A DNA stretch of 64,000 nt from Candidatus Bathyarchaeota archaeon (GCA_963720565.1 CAVRFW010000006.1:25944-89943), one strand, 5' to 3'. Positions 5,298 to 51,346 are shown, numbered from the stretch's first letter. Program-made: numbers and translations. The notes: a model not told the origin generated them from the letters alone.

Positions 5298-5374
5298 TGG
5301 CGCCGCCTAAAGGACTCGAACCTTTGACCTACTGATTAACAGTCAGTTGCACTACCGGGCTGTGCAAAGGCGGC
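5298..5374 (-). tRNA. tRNA-Asn(GTT), intronless, CCA encoded
   Basis: Reverse complement folds as GCCGCCT/AGGCGGC acceptor, GCAC/GTGC D stem, ACTGA-CTGTTAA-TCAGT anticodon arm and AAAGG-TTCGAGT-CCTTT T arm. Confidence 0.96.
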
Positions 5375-5504: not shown

Positions 5505-6074
5505 ATGGTGAGTTTGAAGGGAATAGTTGAGTTCAGGTGGCATGGCAGAGGCGGACAGGGCGCATGGACAGCTAGTGAGTTACTAGCGCGAACTGCGCTC
5601 CACGAGGGCAAATATATCCAGTCTTTTCCGGAGTTTGGCCCCGAAAGAATGGGAGCACCGGTGACTGCGTTCACTCGAATTAGTAATGAGGTTATCAGAT
5701 TACACAGTTCTGTTTACGAGCCAGACATCGTTGTGGTTTTGGATCCAACATTGCTAAAAACCGTTCCAGTAGCTTCCGGAGTGGATGACAAAGGACTTTT
5801 TATCGTTAACTCTGCAGATGAGCCAGTTAAGGTTCGAGAAAGCTTAAAAACAAAAAAAGGAAAACTCTGGACCATTCCTGCGACACAAATCGCTCTGAAA
5901 ATCTTGGGCATGTCTATAACCAATACGGCTATGCTGGGAGCAGTTGCTCGAGCCACTAACGTGGTATCTCTGGATAGTATTGAAAAGACAGTGAAGGAGC
6001 GGTTCAGAGCAGATCTGGCTGAGAAGAATTTCGCAGTTATTAAAGAGGCTTTTCAGGAGGCAAAACAAGAATGA
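5505..6074 (+). CDS. porC: Pyruvate/2-oxoacid:ferredoxin oxidoreductase gamma subunit
   Basis: WHGRGGQG and FPEFGPERMGAPV motifs; first gene of a gamma-delta-alpha-beta operon. Confidence 0.92.
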   Translation: MVSLKGIVEFRWHGRGGQGAWTASELLARTALHEGKYIQSFPEFGPERMGAPVTAFTRISNEVIRLHSSVYEPDIVVVLDPTLLKTVPVASGVDDKGLFIVNSADEPVKVRESLKTKKGKLWTIPATQIALKILGMSITNTAMLGAVARATNVVSLDSIEKTVKERFRADLAEKNFAVIKEAFQEAKQE

Positions 6075-6355
6075 CCAGCAATGAAGAGGGTTGGAAAGAA
6101 ACAGCGCCTGCAGCTGTATGCTCAAAATCGAGCAAACTTTTCTTAACAGGTGACTGGAAAACTTACATGCCTATCCGAGATAAGGCTAAGTGCACCATCT
6201 GTTTGACATGTGTACTTTTTTGTCCGGATGGAGCAATCCATTGGCACCCCGAGAAAGGAGACATCGAATTCGACCTAAGTTTTTGCAAAGGATGCGGAAT
6301 ATGTGCCAACGAGTGCCCAACTAAAGCCATAACGATGAAGCTGGAACAGGAGTGA
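6071..6355 (+). CDS. porD: Pyruvate/2-oxoacid:ferredoxin oxidoreductase delta subunit (2x[4Fe-4S])
   Basis: TGDWKT, CTICLTCVLFCP and CKGCGICANECP. Confidence 0.93.
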   Translation: MTSNEEGWKETAPAAVCSKSSKLFLTGDWKTYMPIRDKAKCTICLTCVLFCPDGAIHWHPEKGDIEFDLSFCKGCGICANECPTKAITMKLEQE

Positions 6356-6362
6356 ACGTGAA

Positions 6363-7592
6363 GTGAAGAAATCTGTTAAACAAGAAAGGATGGCTATGAG
6401 CGGAGACGAAGCCGTTGCTTATGCGGTTAAGCAGTCGGATGTAGATGTGGTTGCGGCCTACCCGATTACACCTCAGACGATAATTGTGGAGAAATTTGGT
6501 GAATATGTGGCTGATGGTGAGGTGCAAACTGAGTTTGTTTGTACCGAGTCTGAGCACAGCGCGTTGGCTGCTTCTCTTTCCGCCTCTGCGACGGGCGCTA
6601 GAACTTTCACGGCTACAGCCTCGGCTGGTTTGGCTTTGATGCATGAGATGCTTTTTGTGACTTCTGGTTGTAGAGCGCCAGTGGTTATGGCAGTTGCCAA
6701 CAGGGCTTTATCTGCTCCGCTTAACATTCACGGAGACCACTCAGATAGTATTGCTCAAAGAGACAGCGGTTGGATTCAGTTGTACGTTGAAAACGCGCAG
6801 GAAGCTTATGATTCGGTGATTCAGGCGTTCAGAATCGCGGAGGATTTTGGAGTGATGTTACCTATTATGGTGGGCTTGGATGGTTTCACGGTGAGCCACA
6901 CACTGGAAAATGTGGAAACGCTTCCGGATGAAGTGACCAAAGAGTTTGTTGGAACACGCCTTTTGCCGAATGTTCTTACACACGAGAACAAAAAAGTTCC
7001 TTTCAAACTTGACCCAGACAATCCTATGACTATGGGTCCAATGGCTTTGCCTAATTATTATTTTGAGTTTAAACGACAACAGGATGAGGCAATGAAGAAC
7101 GCTCTTGCTGTGATTCAGAAGGTAAACGATGAATACGCTGAGTTAACTGGTAGAAAATACGGCAATGGCCTGGTTGAAACTTATCGTCTCGAAGACGCGG
7201 AAATTGCAGCAGTCTGCATTGGCTCAACAGCGGGAACCATGAAAACTGTTGTTGACGAGCTGAGGCAAGAAGGCGTTAAAGCTGGGCTATTGAGATTGCG
7301 CGTGTTCAGACCTTTGCCGGTTGAAGAGATTAGAACGGCTTTGGAAAACGTGAAAGCAGTAGCTGTCTTAGATAAGAGCTTGAGTTTTGGCGGAAATGGT
7401 GGCGCGGTTTTTCACGAGGTTCGCCATATTCTCTACGATTCAAAAGCCAAACCCTATGTCGTAGACTATGTTTACGGCTTGGGTGGGAGAGATGCAAGTC
7501 CAAGAGAGCTTCGGGGCATATACCAAGACCTATTGCAGATAGTGAATAAGGGTGTGCAAAATCCGATTCAGTATCTGGGATTGAGAGAGTAG
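6363..7592 (+). CDS. porA: Pyruvate/2-oxoacid:ferredoxin oxidoreductase alpha subunit
   Basis: AAYPITPQT, ESEHSA, TATASAGL and NRALSAP. Confidence 0.93.
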   Translation: MKKSVKQERMAMSGDEAVAYAVKQSDVDVVAAYPITPQTIIVEKFGEYVADGEVQTEFVCTESEHSALAASLSASATGARTFTATASAGLALMHEMLFVTSGCRAPVVMAVANRALSAPLNIHGDHSDSIAQRDSGWIQLYVENAQEAYDSVIQAFRIAEDFGVMLPIMVGLDGFTVSHTLENVETLPDEVTKEFVGTRLLPNVLTHENKKVPFKLDPDNPMTMGPMALPNYYFEFKRQQDEAMKNALAVIQKVNDEYAELTGRKYGNGLVETYRLEDAEIAAVCIGSTAGTMKTVVDELRQEGVKAGLLRLRVFRPLPVEEIRTALENVKAVAVLDKSLSFGGNGGAVFHEVRHILYDSKAKPYVVDYVYGLGGRDASPRELRGIYQDLLQIVNKGVQNPIQYLGLRE

Positions 7593-7611
7593 ATGGAGGA
7601 AAGAGAAGAAA

Positions 7612-8586
7612 ATGACTAATCAAGAGTGGAAGTTTACTTCAAAAGATATTGCGGCAACGCCAGATTTGTTCTTGTCAGGCCACAGAGCTTGTGCTGGATG
7701 TGTACCTGCAACGGTATTGAGGCTTGTCATGAAAGCTACCCGTGGCCCAACTATAGTAACTGAAGCTACTGGTTGCATGGAAGTTGTTTCTGCGATTTAT
7801 CCGTACACATCTTGGGCTACACCATGGCTACACACTGCCTTTGAGACTGCTGCGGCAAACGCTTCTGGAATAGAAGCTGCGTTGAAGATAATGAAGAAGA
7901 AAGGCAAAGTCAAACAGGAGCATGTAGATGTTATCGCGTTTGCTGGTGATGGGGGTACATACGATATTGGATTTCAAGCATTATCGGGCGCCGTTGAGCG
8001 TGGTCACGATTTCCTGTTCGTGCTTTATGATAATGAGGCTTATATGAACACTGGAATCCAACGGAGCGGCGGAACCCCACATGGAGCTTCGACGACAACT
8101 ACACCTGCTGGCAGAGTTGTGCCAGGAAAGTTGCAATACAAGAAGCCCATTGCAGAAATTATGGTAGCCCATGATATGCCTTATGTAGCCACTGCTTCGC
8201 CATATTACTGGCGTGATTTGCTTACTAAGGTACGGAAGGGCTTGGAGGTTGAAGGACCGGCGTTCTTGCATGTGCTGGCACCTTGTCCTCGTGGTTGGCG
8301 AAGTGACCCGGCCAAATCAATCGAGTACTCGAAGTTGGCGGTGGAAACTTGTGTTTTTCCGTTGTGGGAATCGGTGAACGGACAGTGTCAGTTGTCAGTT
8401 CCAAGCAGGCTTGTCGCTCTTGCGCCGCAGAAGAAAAAGCCAGTTACTGACTATTTGCGGGGGCAAGGCAGATTCAGGCACATGTTTGGACCGCAAGGCA
8501 AGAAATTGCTGGAGGAAATGCAGCTAATAACGGATGAAAAATGGCAGCGTATACTTAAGAAATGCGGAATGGAAAAACAACCATAA
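7612..8586 (+). CDS. porB: Pyruvate/2-oxoacid:ferredoxin oxidoreductase beta subunit (TPP-binding)
   Basis: GHRACAGC, GDGGTYDIG...DNEAYMNTG and PCPRGW. Confidence 0.93.
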   Translation: MTNQEWKFTSKDIAATPDLFLSGHRACAGCVPATVLRLVMKATRGPTIVTEATGCMEVVSAIYPYTSWATPWLHTAFETAAANASGIEAALKIMKKKGKVKQEHVDVIAFAGDGGTYDIGFQALSGAVERGHDFLFVLYDNEAYMNTGIQRSGGTPHGASTTTTPAGRVVPGKLQYKKPIAEIMVAHDMPYVATASPYYWRDLLTKVRKGLEVEGPAFLHVLAPCPRGWRSDPAKSIEYSKLAVETCVFPLWESVNGQCQLSVPSRLVALAPQKKKPVTDYLRGQGRFRHMFGPQGKKLLEEMQLITDEKWQRILKKCGMEKQP

Positions 8587-9071: not shown

Positions 9072-9638
9072 TCAGCTTATCGCCAGAACGCCTTCCAAAA
9101 TCTTCTGATCAGAAACATCTAGTTGCTTAGCCAACCACATCTTCAAAAGCGAAGACAATTTTGGAAGCTCGCCATTATAAGTAATAACCTGATTGCCCTT
9201 GAGCGCGTCAGCCTGAAAAGTCTTTTCTGTCTCCTTAACTATAAAAGACAGATTATTAGCCTGACAAGCCAACGTTTGAAAGTCTTCCCACTGTTTACAA
9301 CGCATAATCACAGACGGACTATACATCACACCAGTCTGCACCTGCGGAACCATAGTCTTTGGCTCGTTCACAACCGCAATCGGAGTCTCACTTTTGGGAG
9401 AGGTTGATAAGTAGCTAATCAGACTAGTGATCTCGTTCTGCAAACCACTTATTTTCTTCTCAACTTTCTCGACCTTGCCGCTAAGCTCTCCAGTTTGGCC
9501 TAACTGCTCTGTAACCGTGCCTAGTTCGTTTATCAGTCGGTCTAGGTCCTTCTCATGCTCTTTGAGAACATTAACTATGAAGTCTAATGCTTCCAATGCT
9601 TCATCTTTCGACTGTGGGTTCTTCGACATTAGTCCCAT
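9072..9638 (-). CDS. Hypothetical protein with N-terminal coiled coil and C-terminal alpha/beta domain
   Basis: 188-aa ORF with a heptad-rich N half and TTTATTTATA upstream. Confidence 0.75.
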   Translation of the reverse strand: MGLMSKNPQSKDEALEALDFIVNVLKEHEKDLDRLINELGTVTEQLGQTGELSGKVEKVEKKISGLQNEITSLISYLSTSPKSETPIAVVNEPKTMVPQVQTGVMYSPSVIMRCKQWEDFQTLACQANNLSFIVKETEKTFQADALKGNQVITYNGELPKLSSLLKMWLAKQLDVSDQKILEGVLAIS

Positions 9639-9877: not shown

Positions 9878-10165
9878 TTAGCGTGGATTCCAAATGCACC
9901 TAATCGCATCCTGCGTGCAGGCTAAGACACATGGTGTTTTCCCGTTCTCAGGCTTGCAGGACGAGCAGACATATTTTATGTTTTTGCGATCGTGCTCCGT
10001 GACCGCTGCTACAGTCTTATCTTCAAGATCTATCAACAGGGTTACCAATTCCAAGGCTGATTTTGGACACTGGTTTACACAATTGCTGCAACCAGTGCAT
10101 TTTCCAGCGTCAATTACAACGTAGTACTCGCCCGAACCGTCACTGTATCCATAATGGGTGATAAT
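9878..10165 (-). CDS. BzdM-like ferredoxin (start unresolved)
   Basis: Manual translation IITHYGYSDGSGEYYVVIDAGKCTGCSNCVNQCP...YVCSSCKP...PCVLACTQDAI. No in-frame ATG/GTG/TTG at the N-terminus; the ATG at 10172 is off by one base. Confidence 0.85.
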   Translation of the reverse strand: MITHYGYSDGSGEYYVVIDAGKCTGCSNCVNQCPKSALELVTLLIDLEDKTVAAVTEHDRKNIKYVCSSCKPENGKTPCVLACTQDAIRCIWNPR

Positions 10166-10184
10166 AAAGCATCAATCCCTTGTC

Positions 10185-11079
10185 CTATCTTTTGTGTTCT
10201 TTCTCATATAATGCCTTGGCAAGAAGTGCTGCGCCAATGGCACCTGCAACCATTGGATCTAATCCTTGGTCTCTCCAATTTGGCGTAGGGAGACACTTAA
10301 CACCCAGAATAGTCTCTATTCTGGAAACGATTCCGATGTTCTTAGATTGCCCACCCGTGATAACCAGTTCTTTCTCGAGGCCCACCCTGTTGATGAGGTT
10401 GCCCATCCTGACTGCCATTGCACGTGTGTAGGCTGCCAAAACTTTCTCCTTAGACCAGCCTTTGCGCAGCAGTCCCACTGCCTCAGTTTTCGCGAAGGCT
10501 ACACAAGTGCAGCTTACTGGAGGAGGTTCCTCGTCAACACTCAATGATACGGAACCCATGTCTTCAATCGGGATTTTCAGCAGGTCAGCAAACACTTCCA
10601 TGCCCCTACCGGTGCCGGCAGCGCACTTGTCATTCATCAGAAATGAGGTGACCCGACCGGTCTCGTCACATCGAATCGCTTTTATGTCTTGGCCGCCAAC
10701 ATCCAGGACAGTTCTGACACTCGGTCCCCAAATGTAGTTCGCGCCTTTCGCGTGGCAGGCAATTTCAGTGATAGCTTTATTCGCCATAGGAACGTTAACT
10801 CTTCCATAGCCAGTTCCGACTATATACTTGAAATCGACTAGTCCTAAGATCAGTTCCTTCCATTGCCCAGCTCAGAGCTTTCTTGGCACTTTCGGGACTG
10901 TTGGATCCTGTCCGCATTATTCCCCAAGAATAAACTTCTCCGTCGATCAGTATAGCGGCCTTGGAGCCCACTGAACCGACGTCAACGCCTGCGGTGATAA
11001 TTTCCTTGTTTTTCCATTTCTTATTCGAGAAGACTCGATGATATTCCTGCCATCTCCAATACTCAACATCTTCTTTCAC
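10185..11079 (-). CDS. bzdQ: BzdQ-type ATP-dependent activase subunit (ASKHA, BcrAD/BadFG family), frameshift near 10843
   Basis: EYWRW...ITAGVDVGS joined to GTGYGRVNVP, TEIACHAKGANY, DVGGQD and MNDKCAAGTGRGMEV. Removing one base fuses the two ORFs. Confidence 0.85.
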
Positions 11080-11089
11080 TGGTTTTTAC

Positions 11090-11875
11090 TCATTTCTGCG
11101 ACCTCTTGACTTTGTCGGCAGCTACTAAAGCTGCTCCGAGCGCTCCAGCGAATTCAGGATACGCAGGTATCAATACGTCGATACTTAGCTTTCTTTTTAA
11201 TGAAGCGAGGAATCCGACGTCTTTGGCGACGCCACCCACCAGAATGACTTCAGGGTTTACTCCAAGTCTGTGAACCATGGATGAGACGCGGTCAGCCATT
11301 GCGTCAAAAACCGCGCGCGCTATCTCGGGTTTTGATTCTTGACGATGAATCAAAGTCACAACATCCGACTCTCCGAAAATAACGCAGCTTGCGTTTATCG
11401 GGCTTGCTCGTTCCGCTTTAAGCGAAAGGGGCCCCATCTCTTCCAGTTTGACCTCTAATGCCCTCGCCATGGCCTCGATGAACGCGCCGGCACCCGCAGC
11501 ACATCGCTCATTCAGCACAAACTCCACCATAAGACCTTTGTCGTCGCATTTTACTGCTCTTGCTTCTTCTGCTCCAACGTCTATTATCGTTCGGGCTTTC
11601 GGAAACAGGAATACACCTGCTTTCGCGTCTGCACCCATCATGCTTATGGTGCTGTTTGCGTTAATTGCCAACGCCATGCCTGAACCGGTGGCAGCGACGT
11701 GATCAACATCACAGAGTGATAATTTCGCCTTTTTCAGCGCTTCCTCGAGAGCTTGCTCTGCGGCTTTTGTTGGGTCAAATCCCGAAAAAGTTTGACTACG
11801 AGAAATGACCTCTCCGTCTCTCAGGACTACAGCTTTTACGCTTTGTGTGCCTAAATCAACTCCTGCAGTTATCAT
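11090..11875 (-). CDS. bzdP: BzdP-type ATP-dependent activase subunit
   Basis: ITAGVDLGT, DVGAEEARA, NERCAAGAGAF and ASCVIFGESDVV. Confidence 0.8.
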   Translation of the reverse strand: MITAGVDLGTQSVKAVVLRDGEVISRSQTFSGFDPTKAAEQALEEALKKAKLSLCDVDHVAATGSGMALAINANSTISMMGADAKAGVFLFPKARTIIDVGAEEARAVKCDDKGLMVEFVLNERCAAGAGAFIEAMARALEVKLEEMGPLSLKAERASPINASCVIFGESDVVTLIHRQESKPEIARAVFDAMADRVSSMVHRLGVNPEVILVGGVAKDVGFLASLKRKLSIDVLIPAYPEFAGALGAALVAADKVKRSQK

Positions 11876-11886
11876 TGACGCAGCCT

Positions 11887-13263
11887 CTAGAAATCAATCC
11901 TTGCCGTAAGCATTTCCAAAAAAGCTTCGACTCTCGTCTTCATTTGTCCAACATCTTCTCGTGTGTACTCTGTATCCAAATAATAAACGGGCATATTAAT
12001 CCGGTCTAAGACCTTCTTGACACGAGTATATTCCATTGCGTAGAGCATACAGCCGCGAACAACATAGTAAATTACTCCTTGAATATTCCACTCCTTAACC
12101 TTGTTTAGGAGCCAGTTGATTCGATCTTCGTTTCCGTCTGCAGATGTAAAGCAGGGGCATGTTGAAGCCATAAGATAACGTTCACCGATGGCGTTAAACA
12201 TATCATCCATTGACCATTCATCAACGCCTACAGGATCATAGAGCAGTCTCTCGCCTGAGCATAGTTCGTCAGCAATAAGGACGCCTTGAGGAGTGGCTTC
12301 CTCGACTAAACTGGGCAGTTTCCAATTGTCAGGCCATATCATAGGTGTGCCTGTCACCATTACCCTGGGGGTTTCTGGCGGGCACGCCCATTTCTTTTCT
12401 TGAACTAGTTTTTCAAGCTCGTCACATAGTGTTTCCGTCTTTTCAGTCCAACGTGTTATGTCATCCCACATGTAAGTTTGATTGACAAGCATTGCGTCTC
12501 TGCCCATAATTACGGGATTGCCTTTCCTGAGATCTTGCAGTCGGCGAAAAGCTTTTGTTGCCTTTTGGGTTTTCTCTATTGCCGCTTTGAGTTTCTTAGC
12601 CGTTATCTTGTTTCCAGTTAGCGCTTCGATTTGTCCTTTGAGAGTCATTATTTCTTCTCTCCAGAAACGCATGGACTGCGCCGAATCCTTCACTCTCGGT
12701 AACGGCATAGACCAGACCGTCTGGTAGTCGCTCAGGATTTCGCCCATTTTTGTCATGCCGTCACAGGTTAGCACACTGATTAGTGCATCGCTCATTTCAA
12801 GATAAGGGGATAGGCCTATCATCTTGGCGCCTATGGTGGATCTTACAACTGGGCAGACTTCCACGGGCACGACGCGGTCTCCGAGTTTGGAGGTGTCATA
12901 CCAGCCAGAGTTGACCCGAACGGGGATGGCATCCGCAGCCAAAATCAGTTCGGTAGGGGCGAACAAGCAAGTGTAGCCGATGACTTTTTTTCCGGCTTCT
13001 TTTGCTGCGCGAATCTCTTTTTCCCGCATGCCAAAAAAGTCCGCGACCTCATCGAAGTACTGCATTGTTTCAGGACGATGTTTTGAGGTTTTTTTCATTC
13101 TGGCGATGTTTTCAGCCATGACTTTTTGGGAAGCAGCCTTGATTGATTCCCTGAGTTCGTCTATTTCTTTTTGAGAGATTTCAGGTACGTATTTTCTTTC
13201 TTGTTGTTTTTCTTGTTGTTTTTCTTTCATCCTTCTCACTCGCTGTCGGTCGGCTTGAGCCAA
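11887..13263 (-). CDS. 2-hydroxyacyl-CoA dehydratase family protein, double-cubane-cluster (DCCP) type
   Basis: Cys motifs YTCLF, VCPVV, TCDG, DELCSG, TCPCF and RGCMLY, plus the C-terminal GQMKTRVEAFLEM. Confidence 0.85.
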   Translation of the reverse strand: MAQADRQRVRRMKEKQQEKQQERKYVPEISQKEIDELRESIKAASQKVMAENIARMKKTSKHRPETMQYFDEVADFFGMREKEIRAAKEAGKKVIGYTCLFAPTELILAADAIPVRVNSGWYDTSKLGDRVVPVEVCPVVRSTIGAKMIGLSPYLEMSDALISVLTCDGMTKMGEILSDYQTVWSMPLPRVKDSAQSMRFWREEIMTLKGQIEALTGNKITAKKLKAAIEKTQKATKAFRRLQDLRKGNPVIMGRDAMLVNQTYMWDDITRWTEKTETLCDELEKLVQEKKWACPPETPRVMVTGTPMIWPDNWKLPSLVEEATPQGVLIADELCSGERLLYDPVGVDEWSMDDMFNAIGERYLMASTCPCFTSADGNEDRINWLLNKVKEWNIQGVIYYVVRGCMLYAMEYTRVKKVLDRINMPVYYLDTEYTREDVGQMKTRVEAFLEMLTARIDF

Positions 13264-14231
13264 TTCCTAGATTTGAAGATTGTTTTCCTGCCCATGTTTA
13301 GTTTCAGACATCCTTCGTAGGGGCACATTTCTACGCATCGGAGGCATAACGTGCACATTGAGGTGGTTATTTTTCCTCCTTTCTGTTCGTAAATTTCGGT
13401 TACTTGTACGGGACAGACTCTTTTGCATATTCCACATTTTGTGCATTTTTCTTCGTCTTTGTCAAGATGAAGTGCTGGAGCCCACTTGAACCCTCTAAAC
13501 CTGTTTACAACGGCGATAGACGAACCAGTTGGACAGAACCTACACCAAACGCGTCTTACCAGGAAAGATCCTGCCACAGTCAATGTAACAAAAACTACTG
13601 CCAACACTAAGCCTATAGTACCGCTAAGATCTATTGCGCTGGAGTAATCAAGTATTTCCTGGATGTAAGGATAGCTGAAATATAAACCGCCGATTTCCAA
13701 CGGGCCTTTCCAAGGTACAATCAGAGTTATTATTGGCCCAAGCAAAACGCTTAGTGGTTTGAACGGTCCCGCAAGGATTAGGGCCAAAACGATCCCGAAG
13801 TCTAATGTCGGCGGAGGATCTATTGCATATAGGACAAAGGGTATAATCAGGAAAAATAGGAATAGCACATACCTGAAATTGTGCAGGTACTTGTTTAGTT
13901 TTTCTGGGAGGTTTCGGTGGCGTATTTTGAAAAGCTTCCGGACTACTGTAATCAAGTCCATGTAGAATGCGAATGGGCAGAGCCAACCGCAGAAGAGGCG
14001 CCCTAGAACAAGCGGGATTAAGAAAATTACTCCTATCACATAGAGCAGTTGTATGGGATTCGTGAAGATGTAGAAAATCGCGATAAAAGACACGGCCTGA
14101 ACAACAAATCGTAGGTAGGTTACTTTTGTGGCGAGACCTTTTTTCCATATAAGGATAACGAGGATCCCCGCTATGGCAATTCCTGCGAGAACGGTTATCT
14201 TGAGTATTTCCGCCAGGATTTCTATCATCAC
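13236..14231 (-). CDS. Membrane 4Fe-4S protein (NapH/MauN/YccM-like)
   Basis: Several TM helices, GRLFCGWLCP and RVWCRFCP motifs, and two C-terminal CxxCxxCxxxCP motifs. Confidence 0.9.
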   Translation of the reverse strand: MMIEILAEILKITVLAGIAIAGILVILIWKKGLATKVTYLRFVVQAVSFIAIFYIFTNPIQLLYVIGVIFLIPLVLGRLFCGWLCPFAFYMDLITVVRKLFKIRHRNLPEKLNKYLHNFRYVLFLFFLIIPFVLYAIDPPPTLDFGIVLALILAGPFKPLSVLLGPIITLIVPWKGPLEIGGLYFSYPYIQEILDYSSAIDLSGTIGLVLAVVFVTLTVAGSFLVRRVWCRFCPTGSSIAVVNRFRGFKWAPALHLDKDEEKCTKCGICKRVCPVQVTEIYEQKGGKITTSMCTLCLRCVEMCPYEGCLKLNMGRKTIFKSRNWLKPTDSE

Positions 14232-14241
14232 TTTTAGCCGC

Positions 14242-14934
14242 CTATGTGACCAAGATTGCGCTTATCAGAGTGCTAAATCCGAGAACCACCAAGAACACAC
14301 CGCCAAGTATGGATATCCACCTTCTAAAATGTGGTGCCTTATTTAGAAGCCAGCCTGTGACTCCGGCTACAATCAGCATTGGAGACAGAGCTGTGCCTAT
14401 TCCGAACAGTATGGCTACGATGAGACTGTCAAACTGAGTTGCAAATGCTGTAGAGTAAGTGACCAGGAGCAGTAGTAATGGTGGACATACAATTAGACCT
14501 CTGCTTAGACCAAGCGAGAAAGCGTGTAAATCGAATTTTCGGTTAGTACTGTTCAATGTTAAGTTTGTCTTGCCCGTTGGGACGCAATTGTCGCAGGAAT
14601 GCAATGTTTGTCTGCTCTTGAGTAGTATGTTAACGCCGATTGCGATTGTAACAAAGGCGAAGGCAAAGGAAGAGTATGTTTGGAATGAAGAGAGAATTTG
14701 ATCGCTCAAGATAATTTTAAACAAGCCAATTGCTGCACCAATGAGCGCATAAGCTGTCACGCGACCTGAATTATATAAAAGTGTTACAAATATTCCCTCC
14801 CGGAACCCAGCTCCTATGCCTGCAATATAACTTGCTAGGTATGGCAAACATGCTGAGGTACAGAATACGAATCCATACGAAAGCCCTACTGCAAAAGCGG
14901 CAATATACGGATTTGTGATTCCAAGCAGGGACAT
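14242..14934 (-). CDS. CcdA/DsbD_2-like transmembrane protein
   Basis: About six TM helices, FCTSACLP, YNSGRVTAY, GLIVCPP and FGIGT motifs. Confidence 0.8.
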   Translation of the reverse strand: MSLLGITNPYIAAFAVGLSYGFVFCTSACLPYLASYIAGIGAGFREGIFVTLLYNSGRVTAYALIGAAIGLFKIILSDQILSSFQTYSSFAFAFVTIAIGVNILLKSRQTLHSCDNCVPTGKTNLTLNSTNRKFDLHAFSLGLSRGLIVCPPLLLLLVTYSTAFATQFDSLIVAILFGIGTALSPMLIVAGVTGWLLNKAPHFRRWISILGGVFLVVLGFSTLISAILVT

Positions 14935-17591: not shown

Positions 17592-17669
17592 GGGCGGGTA
17601 GATCAGCCTGGTACGATCGCCACGTTGGCATCGTGGAGGCCGCGGGTTCGAATCCCGCCCCGTCCACCA
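17592..17669 (+). tRNA. tRNA-Ala(GGC), CCA encoded
   Basis: Cloverleaf with CCACG-TTGGCAT-CGTGG anticodon arm and the G3:U70 alanine identity pair. Confidence 0.96.
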
Positions 17670-29010: not shown

Positions 29011-31099
29011 CTATCTTTCTATAGAGATTTTGCTGATTCCAGCTTCTTTTTCAAGTGTTATTACGTGTTCAGCTTTTTCTGCGAAGACTTCGCTATGGGT
29101 TACCGCGATAATCTGTTCTATAGCTTTGAATCGAGAAATCGCTTCGGCCAAATGCTCGATACTGCCGTCTTCTCTGCCTAGGCTTTCAGTAGGCTCATCC
29201 AACAGCAACATGCTCAAGCCATGACCTGTCCGTGATTGCATGATGAGTTGACCTAAGCCTAAGCGATAAGCAAAAGCGAGCAACGTGCGCTCTCCACCAG
29301 AAAGGTTTGAGACTTCCCTTTCAACTCCGCTTTCGCTTTTCACGCAGGGCGTGTACGTTTCATCTATCATGACGTTCAACAGTGGTGCCTCCCCGCCAAC
29401 TAGACTGTCAAGCACTTGCTGCACGAAGTTCCTAAGCACTTTCACGAATTCACTGCGCAGTTTAGGCTGTATGCTTCTGTACGCATCACGGATTCCGCCC
29501 AAAATCTCAAGAGTCTTGGAGATTTTTTGAATTCGTTCAAACTTTTCTTGAGCATTGTCTATCCTATCTTTGGTCTCGTCTAAACGTTTGAGAAGATCTT
29601 TCTTGCGGTTTTCTCTGAGTCGCAAGTCAGATTCCAAATGAGAATACTGCTGGAATGCTTGTCTGCTTTGTTCCCGTGCGGCTTCGAGATCCGATGAATC
29701 GAATCTGCCAATCTCAAAACGCAAATCATCAAGCTGCGTTTGCAGTTCTGCTGCAAGACGCTGTTTTGCCTCATATTCGGCGGACAAATCGTTCATAGAT
29801 TTCTCTTCTTCGTTTATTCGAACTTTCAGGTCTTCATTTCGCGCAGTAAGAGTAGGCAGGTTCGAGCATGCTTCGAAGGCTACAGCTTTGACTCGTTGTA
29901 CCTCTTCAAGTTCACTTCTTAATTGTTTGAGGACTTTTTGCCTGTCTACATTTTCTTCTTCGATCCTCTGGACTAAACCATTCTTGTATTCTTCATTCAA
30001 CGATTGCAGGCAAAGTGGACAACGGTTTTCGGCGGAAAGAGACTTGGTTCTTTTTTGATCAACTTGCATGTTTTGAAGAATAGCTTCTTGCTCGGCTTTC
30101 AGGTTGGAGATTCGATCATCAAGGGTTGCCAAATGCTGCTGCAGTTTTTCTATTTGCTGGTTTGGCTGTATTCCAACTTCCTCAAGAAGCCTATGGCTTG
30201 CTTTGATCTGTATGTTAATTGAGCTTTGTCGTTGTTTGAGGTTTTCGATGATTGTCTTTTTTCCCTCAATTCTTTGAGTCAGAGATGCCGATGCATCTAT
30301 CGTGTTTGTTATGTTCGTTTGGACTTTTGCTTCGCGCCTCTTTAGGTCGTCGATTAAAAGCTTCTTTTCTTCGAGCTTCTTGAGCTTTGCATCTGCGTCC
30401 TCCAGCACTCTTCTTGCCCTGGCTACTTTTTCGACGGCCCCCTGCAGCTCAATCTCCAGGACGGTGAACTCTTCGGTAATACGGTTGTGCTCATTGCTAG
30501 AGTTTCTCCAGACTGACCACGTCTGGATCTTTCTCGTATACTCTCTTTTCTGTTTCGTATTCGCGCTGGTACTCGGCTATGCTGCTCCACGCAGTTTCGT
30601 AATCCGATAGCCCGAATAACTCGTCCAAACGCCTTTGCCTTTCCCGGGGTGCTGAATCGATAAGTTCTTTCAAATGCTCCTGCCTAACCCAGATGATTTC
30701 GCGGTAAAGGTCCCTGTCCACCCCCGTTATGGCCTTAAACTGTTCGGACACAGCGTCAGTCTTCATGCTTGCCATCAAGGTTTCATCTTGGAAGAGTTTC
30801 AGCTCTTCCAGGTCTTGGCTTATGCCTTTGGAGCGTCTTTTTAGCCCACGAGTTAGCTTGTAGGTGTTCCCGTTGTGAGTAAACTGAACTGTCACTTTTC
30901 CGGAATCTGCGCCTTCACGCAGCAGATACTCAAAGCTCCTGCCGATTGGCTCTCCGAAAAGAGCAAAGTCGATGGAGTATAGAACGCTGGATTTTCCGCA
31001 GCCTAAACCGCCCACTAAACAATTAAAACCCCTTGTAAATGGCACCGTGGATTTGACATGTGAGCGGATGTTTTCAAGCTGAACGATCTCGATTTTCAA
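29011..31099 (-). CDS. rad50: Rad50/SbcC ATPase, frameshift near 30499
   Basis: NIRSH, GGLGCGKSS, zinc hook CPLC, LSGGE, LLDEPT and VTH. Removing one base at CTCTAGCAATGAG joins the two ORFs into about 695 aa. Confidence 0.9.
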
Positions 31100-45357: not shown

Positions 45358-45462
45358 TTGTTTGGGACACTCCATAATGGTAAGGATAATGACTGTGCGG
45401 TTCAATAGAAGCGCAAGTGCATTATTTCAATTTTTCTGTTTGACACATTCAGACTAAACTAA

Positions 45463-45864
45463 CTATACGCGTCTTCCTCTTCTGCCGCCTGGTCTTCTCG
45501 TTCCGTCGTGTGGAATCGGCGTGACTTCCTCAATACGTTCAATGCGAAAACCAAACCTAGCTAATGCGCGTATGGCTGCTTGTGCACCAGGGCCTGGCGT
45601 TCTTGGACCTGACCCTCCTGGAGCTCGGACCTTTATGTGTATCGCTGTTATGCCTTTGTCTCTAGCAGATTCTGCAGCTGCTGTGGCAGCTCGCATTGCT
45701 GCGTAGGGCGAGGACTCCATTCGGTCAGCTTTAACGAACATTCCGCCACTTGTGCGAGAAATTGTTTCGGCGCCTGATATGTCGGTTACATGGATTAGGG
45801 TGTTGTTGTAACTGCTGAAGATGTGGACGACACCCCACTTCTCTGTTTTCTTGCTACTGCTCAG
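45463..45864 (-). CDS. rps11: 30S ribosomal protein S11, probable CTG start
   Basis: [14 protein letters not shown] lies upstream of the first ATG; also TPGPGAQAA and [14 protein letters not shown]. Confidence 0.95.
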
Positions 45865-46452
45865 AACCTGCCGCCTCCTCTTCCGCCTCTTCTACCCCGA
45901 CTTGGAGGTCTTATTTCTGGCTGTTTCGCCACAAATGACAAGCCTTGGCGCAGTGGATGTGTTTCTTTTGCAATGTCGCTCTGTTGGTTGTAGGTGATTT
46001 GTGCTTCTTCCTCTTTTGATACTAGATAACCTGGAATTGTCACTCTTCGGTTTCCAATAGTCACGTGTCCATGCGTTATTAGTTGTCTGGACTTGGAAGA
46101 TTGTCCTGGTTAAACCTTTTCTGAACACAATTGTCTGGAGTCTGCGTTCAAGAAGGTCCTCAATGGATAAGTCCAAAACATTGTCCAAAACTGCGGTTTC
46201 TTGTAGAACGCCCCGTTTTTTCAGTTTTGTTAGCAATTCGTTCTCCATTTTGGCGCGTTCTTCAGCTGATTTACCGATCAGTGAGCGGGCTATGCCCCTA
46301 GTTTTTGACAGAGTTGTTTTGAGACGCCACAACTCATGCTTGTTGCGTAAGCCGTACTGACCTAGATACTTCAGTTCTTCCTCCAGTACGTCTTTGCGCC
46401 AGCTAAAACGTGGAGTTTGAAATTTCTTACGTTGTTTCTTTGGATCGCCCAT
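45861..46452 (-). CDS. rps4: 30S ribosomal protein S4, frameshift near 46094
   Basis: MGDPKKQRK and ERRLQT. Removing one A gives the conserved [10 protein letters not shown]...IPGYLV. Confidence 0.95.
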
Positions 46453-49041: not shown

Positions 49042-51346
49042 TTATGTCTCGTAGTTTGATAGTTTCTTCTGTTTCTGTCCCTTGATTGCGTCGTAAACTG
49101 ATTCGGTCGTGTAGTCTGCAAAGCTCAAAAGGCTGGCCCCAGAGGCATAGAGCAAAAGCAGATATTTCTTGATGTCGGGGTTCACACCTTTCTCTATGAG
49201 TTGTGCTGCTTTAACTCTGCGGTCATAGCGTTTGTCTTTGGCATGAGTGAAAAGGAAGCGTACATTGTTTCCCGCGTGTATTTGGGCGCCTTCCTTTATG
49301 AGTTGCTCGGCAGCTATGACTTGGCTGACGTGTTGCCTATAACGCTTCGGGTTTTTTGACATATGTTTTGTGACTATTAGGTCCCAGAGAGGTACCTGGC
49401 CGTCCAGCAGTTTTCGCCGATATTTTTTAACAATTTCTAGGGCGTCAGGAATTTTTTTGTACAGTTCACTGGTGTTGTTTGCGGAAGCTAGGGTTTTTAT
49501 CATTTCTGTTTGGGCTTCAAACACGAAGTGTGGTGTGTCTCTACGGCGAATTTCTAAGCCGCGGACTTTGATTTTTCCGTTTTCCATTACACCGTAATAC
49601 CGGTTCAATACGCCCACGCGTGGATGCATTTTCGAAGGCAAAAAAACTATCCATTTATAGCGTCCCTCAAATGTTATGGGCACTCCAACTTGCTCCGTTA
49701 TTGTTTTGCACAATGTATTGTATTCTTCGAGTACTAGCGTCTCGTTTCTTTAGCCATAGAGAATCAACGATGCCGTGGACCACCTCAAATCCATATTTCT
49801 CAGCCTTGTGTGCTGCCTTCAATAGGGCTTCTCTGCCGAAAGCACAGACGCCCATGTGACCGTCAACTGTGCCGAACTTTGCATTCCGATAGCCCAAATA
49901 GCCGAAACAAGTGACTAAAATCCACTTCAGTGCGGCCTGGCGTCTGTCGTAAACTTCCTTAAGCTGTGGATCGTCTGTTTGGTCCTTCATACGTTTGTAG
50001 AACAAGCGTTTATCTACGATCAGCCTTAGGGTTTTGGGGACTATGCCTTCCCGTTTCGTGCATATATTGTAGTTCAGGTCTGGGATTCGTGAAGTCGAGT
50101 TTGGGCAGCATTCACAGAGAACGGTTTCTGCCGATATGTTGTTGTCCACCATCAAAACAGGGTACATCGAAGAAAAATCAATTTCGCCCACAAAGTCGTG
50201 AGCTCCTACTCGTGGTTCGAAGACTATGCCGCCTCGGTCGCCTACGAGCAGTTCGTAGGCGGTTTTGAAGGCTTCAGGGATGCTCTTGTTCCGGGGAATT
50301 AGCACATCGTCTTTAATCGCCTGATAAAACTGGAGTGAAGACATGCTTGAGCCTATGGAGTTGCGGGCAGCGGTGTGTAGGGGTACGCGGCATGTTCTGG
50401 CGACTTCTATTAGACCTTCGAATCCGGCTTCAGATAAGATGAACGTGTTGTTTTCGTCGATGTGTATTCTGCCGTAGAGTCGAATGGCTCCGGCTCTGTA
50501 GAACGTACGACCGTAGGAGAAGAATGTTTTTCCTGAAGGGGGTTTCGGCGAGAAAGGTGTTTTGTCTCGGCTCAGGATGAATTCGCTCAGGACATTATTA
50601 AGGGTGGCTCGTTGTGTGAGGTAGGGGAAAAGATAGGAGTCGCCGCCTTGGGTTATTATGATGTCTGGGTCAAGTTCTTTGACGACTTTGGCGATTTGAA
50701 GTATTTTTTCTGCTTCCTCGTCTGAATCGATGCATATTTCTTTCTGGTTTTGAGTTATGCAAACTGAGGATATGGAGTCTTGGAAATTGGGTATTTTTCC
50801 TTTTTTGTCGATTTCCACTCTCAGCTTCATCACTCGCAACTCTGGAACAGCATAATCTGTGCTGGTTGCCGAATCTAGGAGTGTATAGTGCAGTCCTGTC
50901 TCTTCTGTTCGGATGTCTACAAACGCCAAAGGGAAAATGTCGTGGCTGAAGAAGTAGGCACGATCTCCTTTCAAATCGCAGTTGTGGATCTCATAATTCA
51001 GATAGTCACCTAATCTCAGAATGTTGAGAGTGAGAGATTGTGTTTTTCTACAGTCTTTCAGCGTAAGCTCTAAGACTCTGGATTTCATGGCGTCTGTGGG
51101 GTGCGCGTACTTGTACGCGAAATTCCATGAGGATAGTATGCTGTTGTTACAGAGTCGGCTGACTAAGCGTTCTATTTCATCCTGCTTGGCTGAAACGTAA
51201 ATTTTGGGTTGGAAATTATCTGCGAGTTTTATTCTTTCGCCGTTTTCGGTTATGATCCAAACGGCGATTTTGCCGGGGCCGGAAGGGTAAGCGTCAAGTA
51301 TCCAGCCTCTAACATGGTCTGGAGCTACCTGTGTTTTTGACTGCAT
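49042..51346 (-). CDS. polB2: Family B DNA polymerase, PolB2 group, frameshift near 49733
   Basis: DRGG, DFSSMYP, KWILVTCFGYLG, altered motif C HGIVDS, and KVRGLEIRRRD in the second ORF. Confidence 0.9.

Follow-up and report, generated by a model that had tools for sequence, protein, structure and literature searches.

A conserved operon of Bathyarchaeia joins a double-cubane-type protein to a Bzd-type ATPase pair and a NapH-like membrane protein predicted to dock on it

Double-cubane cluster proteins (DCCPs), benzoyl-CoA reductases (BCR) and 2-hydroxyacyl-CoA dehydratases (HAD) form one enzyme family. The DCCP of Carboxydothermus hydrogenoformans is paired with a single homodimeric reductase, DCCP-R (6ENO, 7YYL, 7YZM; PMC7317905, PMC9351452), and the Bzd-type benzoyl-CoA reductase BzdNOPQ, which has the ferredoxin BzdM, likewise holds an [8Fe-9S] cluster in BzdN, where it serves electron transfer or storage (8S02; PMC11971306). 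What double-cubane proteins do in nature is still an open question (PMC7317905, PMC11971306). Here we describe an operon, hereafter the DCC operon, in a 64,000-nucleotide stretch of DNA (the window; positions are counted from its first letter) from a Candidatus Bathyarchaeota archaeon (GCA_963720565.1 CAVRFW010000006.1:25944-89943). It encodes a double-cubane-type protein (DCC), two ATPase subunits of BzdP and BzdQ type (P and Q), a BzdM-like ferredoxin, and a NapH-like and a DsbD_2-family membrane protein. The operon is a real, conserved variant of the DCCP/BCR/HAD family that is new to the searchable literature, where no description of the module was found (subscription papers lie outside its coverage).

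With the C. hydrogenoformans system the operon shares the protein fold, the six cluster ligands, the N-terminal extension and an ASKHA-type ATPase neighbour, but DCC is only 38% identical to that DCCP, has lost its seventh cysteine and has gained an arginine, R105. DCCP-R is replaced by a heterodimeric Bzd-type P/Q pair with a degenerate P, and a dedicated ferredoxin, membrane partners and surface partners are added. P, Q and the ferredoxin are orthologous to their counterparts in BzdNOPQ/BzdM and in archaeal bzdNOPQM operons such as loci L018 and L086 (48–54%, 67–74% and about 50% identity, respectively), whereas BzdO, a BzdV-like gene and oah are missing from the DCC operon, its reductase subunit is of DCCP type, and its P lacks a glutamate that archaeal BzdP keeps. 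The NapH-like protein resembles the CcoG/NapH/NosR polyferredoxins (for CcoG, PMC7558416) in being a membrane protein with two [4Fe-4S] clusters and two cysteine motifs; it scores far below the curated cutoffs for both CcoG and NapH, and metal reduction at its cysteine motifs is putative. To our knowledge, no member of the CcoG/NapH/NosR group is fed by an ATP-driven double-cubane protein, and none was found in the searchable literature.

An earlier note on this DNA, made from the sequence alone, had read the six genes as a hybrid very-low-potential reductase possibly coupled to membrane electron flow. They do lie on the minus strand in the order it gave, separated by 13, 5, 11, −4 and 19 nt. 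Conservation was assessed in 60 de-duplicated ortholog loci, divided into subsets by the flanking DNA available. The genes for DCC, P, Q and ferredoxin stand together on one strand in all 53 loci with at least 2.3 kb of downstream DNA, and NapH or DsbD_2 is found on the same strand in all 52 with at least 2.3 kb upstream (NapH in 45, DsbD_2 in 30, both in 23). Since the four genes co-occur in every one of the 53 loci, the gene order is not a product of chance, and the conservation that the earlier note wished to see checked is borne out. A gene for a CARDB surface protein lies upstream in 28 of 42 ortholog loci and is often part of the operon as its seventh gene.

DCC is a double-cubane-type protein and not a BzdN or BzdO. 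Its best relative of solved structure is DCCP (E 6e-80; E 8e-80 for 6ENO), followed by BzdN (E 3e-24), and the six cluster-ligand cysteines (C88, C126, C156, C324, C358 and C394), aligned to those of 6ENO, are invariant in 58 of 58 orthologs. The structural model (pLDDT 95.7) matches 6ENO with a TM of 0.88 and 7YZM with a VIA Z of 52.8 (rmsd 1.7 Å over 408 residues), against a Z of 44.6 for BzdN. Model residues 25–442 align with residues 11–421 of 7YZM, and the extension characteristic of class I DCCPs, which blocks the CoA channel in DCCP (PMC7317905), is present. Phylogeny gave the same answer: in a FastTree tree of 114 rows after thinning, DCC groups with DCCPs, apart from BzdN, BzdO and Had-type subunits, rather than with the ordinary dehydratase subunits that the earlier note had named as the alternative, and a second tree places it in a 41-row clade of membrane-linked DCCPs with an SH-aLRT of 96. 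DCC reaches 336 bits on NF040772 (cutoff 350; three orthologs reach 343, 363 and 333) and 93 on the BzdN model (cutoff 454), on which archaeal BzdN proteins score 388–425; the dehydratase models HadC and HadB give 91 against a cutoff of 700 and 20 against 750. A 2-hydroxyacyl-CoA dehydratase alpha/beta pair was considered and rejected, as the genome has a single HGD-D gene, with six cysteines rather than a three-cysteine pair. An [8Fe-9S] cluster and its ATP-dependent reduction are predicted.

Two substitutions near the cluster distinguish DCC from classical DCCPs. The seventh cysteine of DCCP (Cys94) is replaced by N107, the position being N, S or G in 58 of 60 orthologs and Y in L083, and the seven-cysteine motif of DCCP classes I and II is thus incomplete. 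R105 is present in 60/60 orthologs and in 32/32 other membrane-linked DCCPs, compared with 0/38 classical ones. It aligns with Arg53 of BzdN, a residue in contact with the cluster by which BzdN transfers or stores electrons (PMC11971306).

Two different ATPase genes are found in 53 of 53 loci, unlike the single homodimeric activase of DCCPs. Q branches inside the BzdQ clade next to its sister group, Thermoproteota bzdQ (support 93, in a tree of 71 rows to which 46 of 120 search matches, known by sequence only, contribute), and P is the sister of archaeal BzdP; both are quick trees, and their branching broadly mirrors that of the reductase tree. Intact Q orthologs score 372–398 on TIGR03192 (cutoff 380). 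The Bzd-clade identity assigned earlier therefore stands, but the loss of a catalytic glutamate from P had been overlooked. At the position matching E69 of DCCP-R, P has Met in 56 and Ile in 1 of 57 sequences, compared with E or D in 10/10 archaeal BzdP, and the arginine of the GTGYGR motif is missing in 57/57, compared with R or K in 10/10; both cluster cysteines of P are retained. Replacing E69 with Q or N cuts DCCP-R's ATPase activity about tenfold (PMC9351452). Because P has lost this glutamate and the arginine while Q keeps its catalytic motif residues (54/54), P is likely the catalytically weak half of a one-sided ATPase. The ferredoxin, 49–53% identical to that of archaeal bzdNOPQM operons, is by analogy likely to supply P/Q with electrons. 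Two activases are likewise present in L107–L109, as an unrelated pair, and in L110, where BzdPQM has kept the glutamate. The latter (L110:2476-11965) represents a second lineage, with BzdPQM near NapH and DCCP genes, ApbE and a NosR-like protein, together with divergent TsuA/YeeE, TusA-like and DsrE-like sulfur genes.

The NapH-like protein has two membrane motifs (CxxxCP/CxxCP) and two [4Fe-4S] motifs, with 12 cysteines invariant in 50 rows; its scores are 73 on TIGR02163 (NapH; cutoff 213) and 27 on TIGR02745 (CcoG; cutoff 317). Its subfamily was detected, often with more than one copy per genome, in 32 of 32 genomes carrying the operon (E 2e-98 or better) and in none of 36 non-carriers (best 5e-52, a distant paralog). 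The DsbD_2 protein was found in 28 of these 32 carriers and in none of the 36 genomes without the operon. It has about six helices, with C25, C29, C114 and C150-x-P invariant in an alignment of nine sequences, and is likely a metal or thiol-redox permease. Identity with ArsG was rejected (33.5 bits against a cutoff of 200). The CARDB protein, with one N-terminal hydrophobic helix, a CARDB domain and a C-terminal domain containing an SCP motif, is likely an exported partner of the NapH-like protein; its C-terminal part resembles unnamed bacterial clusters (Atlas, 0.90), which is a lead only. The genome that contains the window has three NapH copies and one each of DCC, P/Q, ferredoxin and DsbD_2. 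Each NapH copy adjoins an exported protein, namely the CARDB protein, a NosD-like protein with a CxC motif, or a 236-aa protein, and the same pairs recur in genomes G033, G061, G064 and G069. In this genome (G000), the gene at C9:36089-37795 (L195) starts with an exported Cys/His N-terminal domain and is followed by the NosD-like gene, and the gene at C1:41164-42435 (L196) lies behind the 236-aa exported protein, which has no Pfam family.

Structure prediction points to direct contact between the NapH-like protein and the reductase. A complex model of DCC residues 20–447 with the NapH-like protein scored 0.67, compared with 0.00 for the best of three controls. Of 157 solved complexes 116 reach this mark, and of 215 mismatched pairs 2 do, a calibration that applies roughly, given custom-made alignments. 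The runs agreed in at least 95% of contacts, with a partner pLDDT of at least 64. NapH residues 260–272 and 302–304 are predicted to lie on DCC residues 332–357 and 369–379, beside the cluster ligand C358 and clear of the C-terminal helix, to which the reductase binds in DCCP. The DCC patch D337-E338-W339/D343 is conserved in 59–60 of 60 sequences of the Bathyarchaeia clade and in 23–28 of 32 other membrane-linked DCCPs, while 38 classical DCCPs show no such conservation, which supports the predicted docking independently of the complex score. A natural NapH-DCCP fusion also exists (P0208). With the docking model, the fusion and the co-occurrence, the link to the membrane is stronger than the earlier note had guessed.

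The plasmid NZ_CP087125 of Sulfurovum mangrovi carries a comparable cassette, in which DsbD_2, two Fer4_5 proteins, a DCCP-like gene and one activase lie between TonB receptors. Its DCCP belongs to the same subclade as DCC and has the same NapH-like and DsbD_2 partners, the D-E-W patch and R105; it differs in that there is a single activase, the seventh cysteine is usually kept in such bacterial cassettes, and DUF4198-like and TonB partners take the place of the CARDB/NosD surface proteins. No characterisation of this DsbD_2/Fer4_5/DCCP-like/TonB cassette was found in the searchable literature. We further examined the best 80 of 499 metagenomic loci, from 7 of 64 parts of a collection, with loci too short for the tree assigned by rank. 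NapH and/or DsbD_2 flank 37 of 43 membrane-linked loci, the six misses being short contigs or genes at a contig edge, compared with 0 of 37 classical loci, 19 of which span at least 8 kb. TonB receptors (16/43 versus 0/37) and a His-rich DUF4198-like protein (21/43 versus 0/37) show the same split with search profiles built from the membrane-linked group. Siderophore, heme or copper models make up most of the best matches of the TonB receptors. Genes found near bacterial loci include CobN, NosL and MntP, and NosL domains are fused in bacterial partners. The DCCP, NapH and DsbD_2 module is therefore older and wider than Bathyarchaeia, so that the Bzd-type ATPase is an add-on.

Our preferred reading is that the operon encodes an ATP-charged electron relay, which is predicted to dock on NapH-like membrane proteins and would send electrons of very low potential to their membrane cysteine sites, most likely so as to reduce and thereby free a metal that the neighbouring surface protein has captured. 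As a whole this reading is plausible, though short of probable; the architecture of the relay is quite probable, the outward direction of electrons is mildly favoured, and a metal chelate is a tentative choice of substrate. By analogy with BzdM and BzdPQ, the ferredoxin would reduce a [4Fe-4S] cluster bridging P and Q. ATP hydrolysis would then push the electron into the [8Fe-9S] cluster of a DCCP-type homodimer, as suggested by 7YZM, and would take place mainly at Q because P lacks the catalytic glutamate, a loss that is seen directly while its effect is presumed. The first [4Fe-4S] motif of NapH (C263/266/269/303) is predicted to dock next to C358, from where electrons could pass on to the CxxxCP sites, much as happens in CcoG, a cupric reductase. 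In what is the weakest step, the DsbD_2 protein may move reduced metal or relay thiol electrons. One cytoplasmic unit could serve several NapH/surface-protein pairs, three of which are present in the genome studied here.

The direction of flow is suggested by the chemistry of DCCP, which resists dithionite and Ti(III) without ATP (PMC9351452). Because its reduction depends on ATP, an ordinary [4Fe-4S] protein docked on it is more easily seen as acceptor than as donor, and the predicted docking of NapH on the reductase itself suggests outward flow to the membrane rather than inward flow. Reductive metal release is favoured by the precedent of CcoG, a type of membrane polyferredoxin able to reduce metal at membrane cysteine sites (PMC7558416), and by the uptake context in bacteria. 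Several points weigh against this reading. Sending ATP-energised electrons to an ordinary [4Fe-4S] protein would be wasteful unless NapH or its acceptor is of very low potential. The argument for metals is borrowed from bacteria, since TonB systems are not known from Archaea; of 19 bacterial receptors, only 1 lies above the curated siderophore cutoff, and L110 adjoins sulfur-transport genes instead. R105 may, as in BzdN, raise the potential of one sub-cluster and so allow inward flow (PMC11971306). The counts of carriers and non-carriers are not independent of kinship, their search profiles were built from carriers, and DsbD_2 was not found in 4 of the 32 carriers. The complex was folded with one DCC chain, custom alignments and no clusters, and that the patch is accessible in the homodimer is an assumption. 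More speculatively, the double cubane could act throughout a large bacterial and archaeal subfamily as an ATP-charged hub rather than an active site. It would plug into interchangeable NapH-like proteins, every one of them matched with a separate capture protein at the surface or in the periplasm, and would reduce tightly held metals or exported targets.

With a partner named, a docking patch predicted and bacterial carriers in culture, the natural role of double-cubane proteins becomes testable. If the relay reading is true, ATP-driven outward electron transfer would give DCCPs a first physiological role, and Bathyarchaeia would perform it with a half-active ATPase acquired from benzoyl-CoA reductase. 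A one-sided ATPase could also serve as a natural probe of the coupling between hydrolysis and electron transfer.

Among the competing functions, the one that databases imply, a class I benzoyl-CoA reductase or 2-hydroxyacyl-CoA dehydratase, is highly improbable. Orthologs of the operon carry benzoyl-CoA reductase subunit labels (JGI and NCBI call them BcrC, BadD or HgdB), P, Q and the ferredoxin are of Bzd type, and DCC shares the six-cysteine pattern and R105 with BzdN. The catalytic subunit gene bzdO, however, was found in 0 of 45 carrier genomes, compared with 5 of 5 controls; 20 of these carriers were recognised by Q matches of 79% or more, with context checked in five, and at least one pair, G064 and G341, is a single genome counted twice. 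Neither bzdN nor bzdO partners occur elsewhere in the window's own genome (88.8% complete), in agreement with the earlier note, which had paired Bzd-type P, Q and ferredoxin with one DCCP-type subunit and seen no BzdN/O in the window, and the ring-cleavage gene oah (TIGR03200) had no match in this genome, the one searched for it. DCC is the sole HGD-D gene in the genome and the only one in 20 of 25 carriers, the other five adding a classical DCCP linked to SelD and, in one case, an unclassified fragment as well. The DCCP grouping and the low BzdN score argue the same way, as does the occurrence, in other Bathyarchaeia, of true bzdNOPQM operons that include had and enoyl-CoA hydratase genes. 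Because bzdO was found in none of the 45 carriers, the operon very probably neither encodes a benzoyl-CoA reductase nor serves aromatic-ring breakdown. For Bathyarchaeum tardum, adjacent bcrA, bcrD and bcrC without bcrB, growth inhibition by benzoate and no corrinoid activating enzyme are reported (PMC10477458); the gene layout, on which the likeness is drawn, fits a DCC operon. A terminal reductase, with the double cubane acting on a small cytoplasmic substrate and the membrane proteins feeding electrons in or delivering the substrate, follows the direction of the earlier note and is a stronger contender, though still unlikely. NapH is a donor-side protein in nitrate respiration, which counts for this alternative. 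So do the class I N-terminal extension of DCC and the reduction of acetylene by DCCP at its cluster (PMC7317905). It accords poorly with the modelled docking of NapH on the reductase, a patch specific to membrane-linked DCCPs, the lost cysteine above the cluster and the sharing of one reductase by several NapH/surface-protein pairs.

An outward relay might instead activate or maintain exported cysteine or metal proteins, or reduce an external acceptor in the manner of NosR, rather than serve metal uptake. The pairing of NapH copies with NosD-like or other exported proteins bearing conserved cysteines, the NosR-like protein and ApbE in L110, the NosL fusions and the invariant cysteines of DsbD_2 all fit this idea, which is nonetheless rather improbable given the TonB/ExbBD import machinery in bacterial loci and given that no catalytic exported enzyme was recognised in the annotated loci. 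Corrinoid reactivation or salvage, in which the unit would replace the RACE/RACo activator of the Wood-Ljungdahl corrinoid protein, is very unlikely. Among CoFeSP-positive genomes, an intact RACo was found in just 1 of the 31 that carry the operon but in 12 of the 27 that do not, B. tardum combines its bcr layout with the reported lack of an activating enzyme, and CobN lies beside one bacterial locus; yet 15 of the 27 non-carriers have neither system, two carriers without CoFeSP do have RACo, related genomes are not independent, and the membrane and surface partners would be left unexplained. No cobalamin riboswitch reached the Rfam gathering score in 32 loci or the window, although the loci extend to at most 8 kb from the gene and a leader may escape, and control by B12 was ruled against on this basis.

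The labels matter beyond this locus, since the case for aromatic degradation by Bathyarchaeia has been made in part from bcr genes (PMC12694404, PMC6472368). The bzdO test distinguishes DCC operons from true bzd operons, which exist in other Bathyarchaeia; the genes counted in those two studies may be of either type. Bathyarchaeia are common sediment archaea, and DCC operon genes are common there. At L018, L019, L021 and L086-L092, in other Bathyarchaeia and Thermoproteota, (near-)complete bzdNOPQM operons are accompanied by genes for a BzdV-like oxidoreductase and by had/enoyl-CoA hydratase genes. Classical seven-cysteine DCCPs lie beside selD in some Bathyarchaeia (L072-L076, L016), and a DsrE-like gene and a LysR linked to selenium are often present too; L016 additionally has SepSecS and an aSelB-domain protein. 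A selenium link was rejected for the DCC operon, as the SelD neighbours belong to the classical DCCP clade. A DCCP link to organometallic import has been proposed for this classical, selenium-linked group (10.1101/2022.07.06.499078).

Table 1. Genes of the DCC operon and adjoining features, in window coordinates.
Feature	Position	Strand	Basis or remark
CARDB surface protein, 737 aa	15087..17300	minus	PF07705, hydropathy; often the operon's first gene
DsbD_2/TauE-like membrane protein, 230 aa	14242..14934	minus	PF13386, 77.9 bits
NapH/CcoG-like membrane polyferredoxin, 330-331 aa	13236..14231	minus	PF12801 (Fer4_5), Fer4
Double-cubane-type protein (DCC; Pfam HGD-D), 447 aa	11887..13230	minus	38% identity to 6ENO
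BzdP-clade ASKHA subunit (BcrAD_BadFG), 261 aa	11090..11875	minus	Trees
BzdQ-clade ATPase (BcrAD_BadFG), ~302 aa in relatives	10185..11093	minus	Split by two indels here
BzdM-like ferredoxin, 95 aa, two [4Fe-4S] motifs, ATT start	9878..10165	minus	Cys pattern, homolog alignment
porCDAB, 2-oxoacid:ferredoxin oxidoreductase	5505..8586	plus	Mere neighbour, outside the system

Some gene models in Table 1 differ from those of the earlier note. The reductase had been read as 458 aa, a reading that intrudes on the upstream gene; it starts at the ATG at 13230, and its closest homologs (98% identical) are 443–447 aa long. The BzdQ-like gene is present as described but is not intact in the window, two indels having been missed: a base is lacking near 11077, a surplus base stands at 10842, and the two compensate each other. 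Eight sequencing runs were compared, all from relatives 95–98% identical and none from the source strain. The extra base is absent in 6 of 6 runs covering the site (two had no contig over 10842), and the missing base is present in 5 of 5 (three had no contig over 11077). In all 55 other loci, made up of 52 orthologs and three bzd operons, the two halves of Q are in frame with each other, L054 being broken elsewhere. The assembly is indel-prone: frameshifts also affect rpS4 (45405-46452), rad50 (29011-31099) and a family-B DNA polymerase gene (49042-51346), and 7 of 94 genes tested genome-wide appear broken. With intact relatives and these other frameshifts, the break in bzdQ is likely an assembly error. 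That the operon is instead decaying in the source strain, with bzdQ truly broken, is very unlikely; the two indels and the lack of a run from the exact strain would allow it, but all covering relatives are intact, the essential rpS4 is likewise frameshifted, and the other five genes are whole.

The ferredoxin gene has no ATG, GTG or TTG start, and the ATT at 10165 matches the start position of its homologs. Among 56 matches, start codons read by alignment position only were ATT (14), ATA (13), TTG (9), ATG (6), GTT (5), ATC (4) and GTG (2), with GTA, TTT and GTC once each, often preceded by a GAGGTGA-like motif. The mostly non-canonical starts suggest relaxed start selection or a deliberately low expression.

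The por operon, which the earlier note had offered as a supplier of reduced ferredoxin, fails as a dedicated donor, as just 2 of 42 ortholog loci have it adjacent. Apart from a few, among them one Bacteroidetes bin, the related loci bear Bathyarchaeia in their titles, and close Q orthologs occur in 19 of 25 sampled genomes of the window's family; the operon is also found outside the class, in G095 and G235. Locus L062, titled uncultured Bacteroidetes, has the operon at 86–90% identity with por adjacent, and is probably a mis-binned Bathyarchaeia contig. A scan for promoters and terminators, of a type ill-suited to archaea, was at chance level in its results. A 188-aa coiled-coil-like protein of no family (9072-9638) lies downstream in 29 of 42 ortholog loci at variable distance and orientation. 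tRNA genes at 5301-5374 and 17592-17666 flank the por and DCC operons. A cation-diffusion-facilitator transporter with three ZT_dimer domains is found in seven loci, and in one of them (L010:2872-4254) it directly precedes the CARDB gene.

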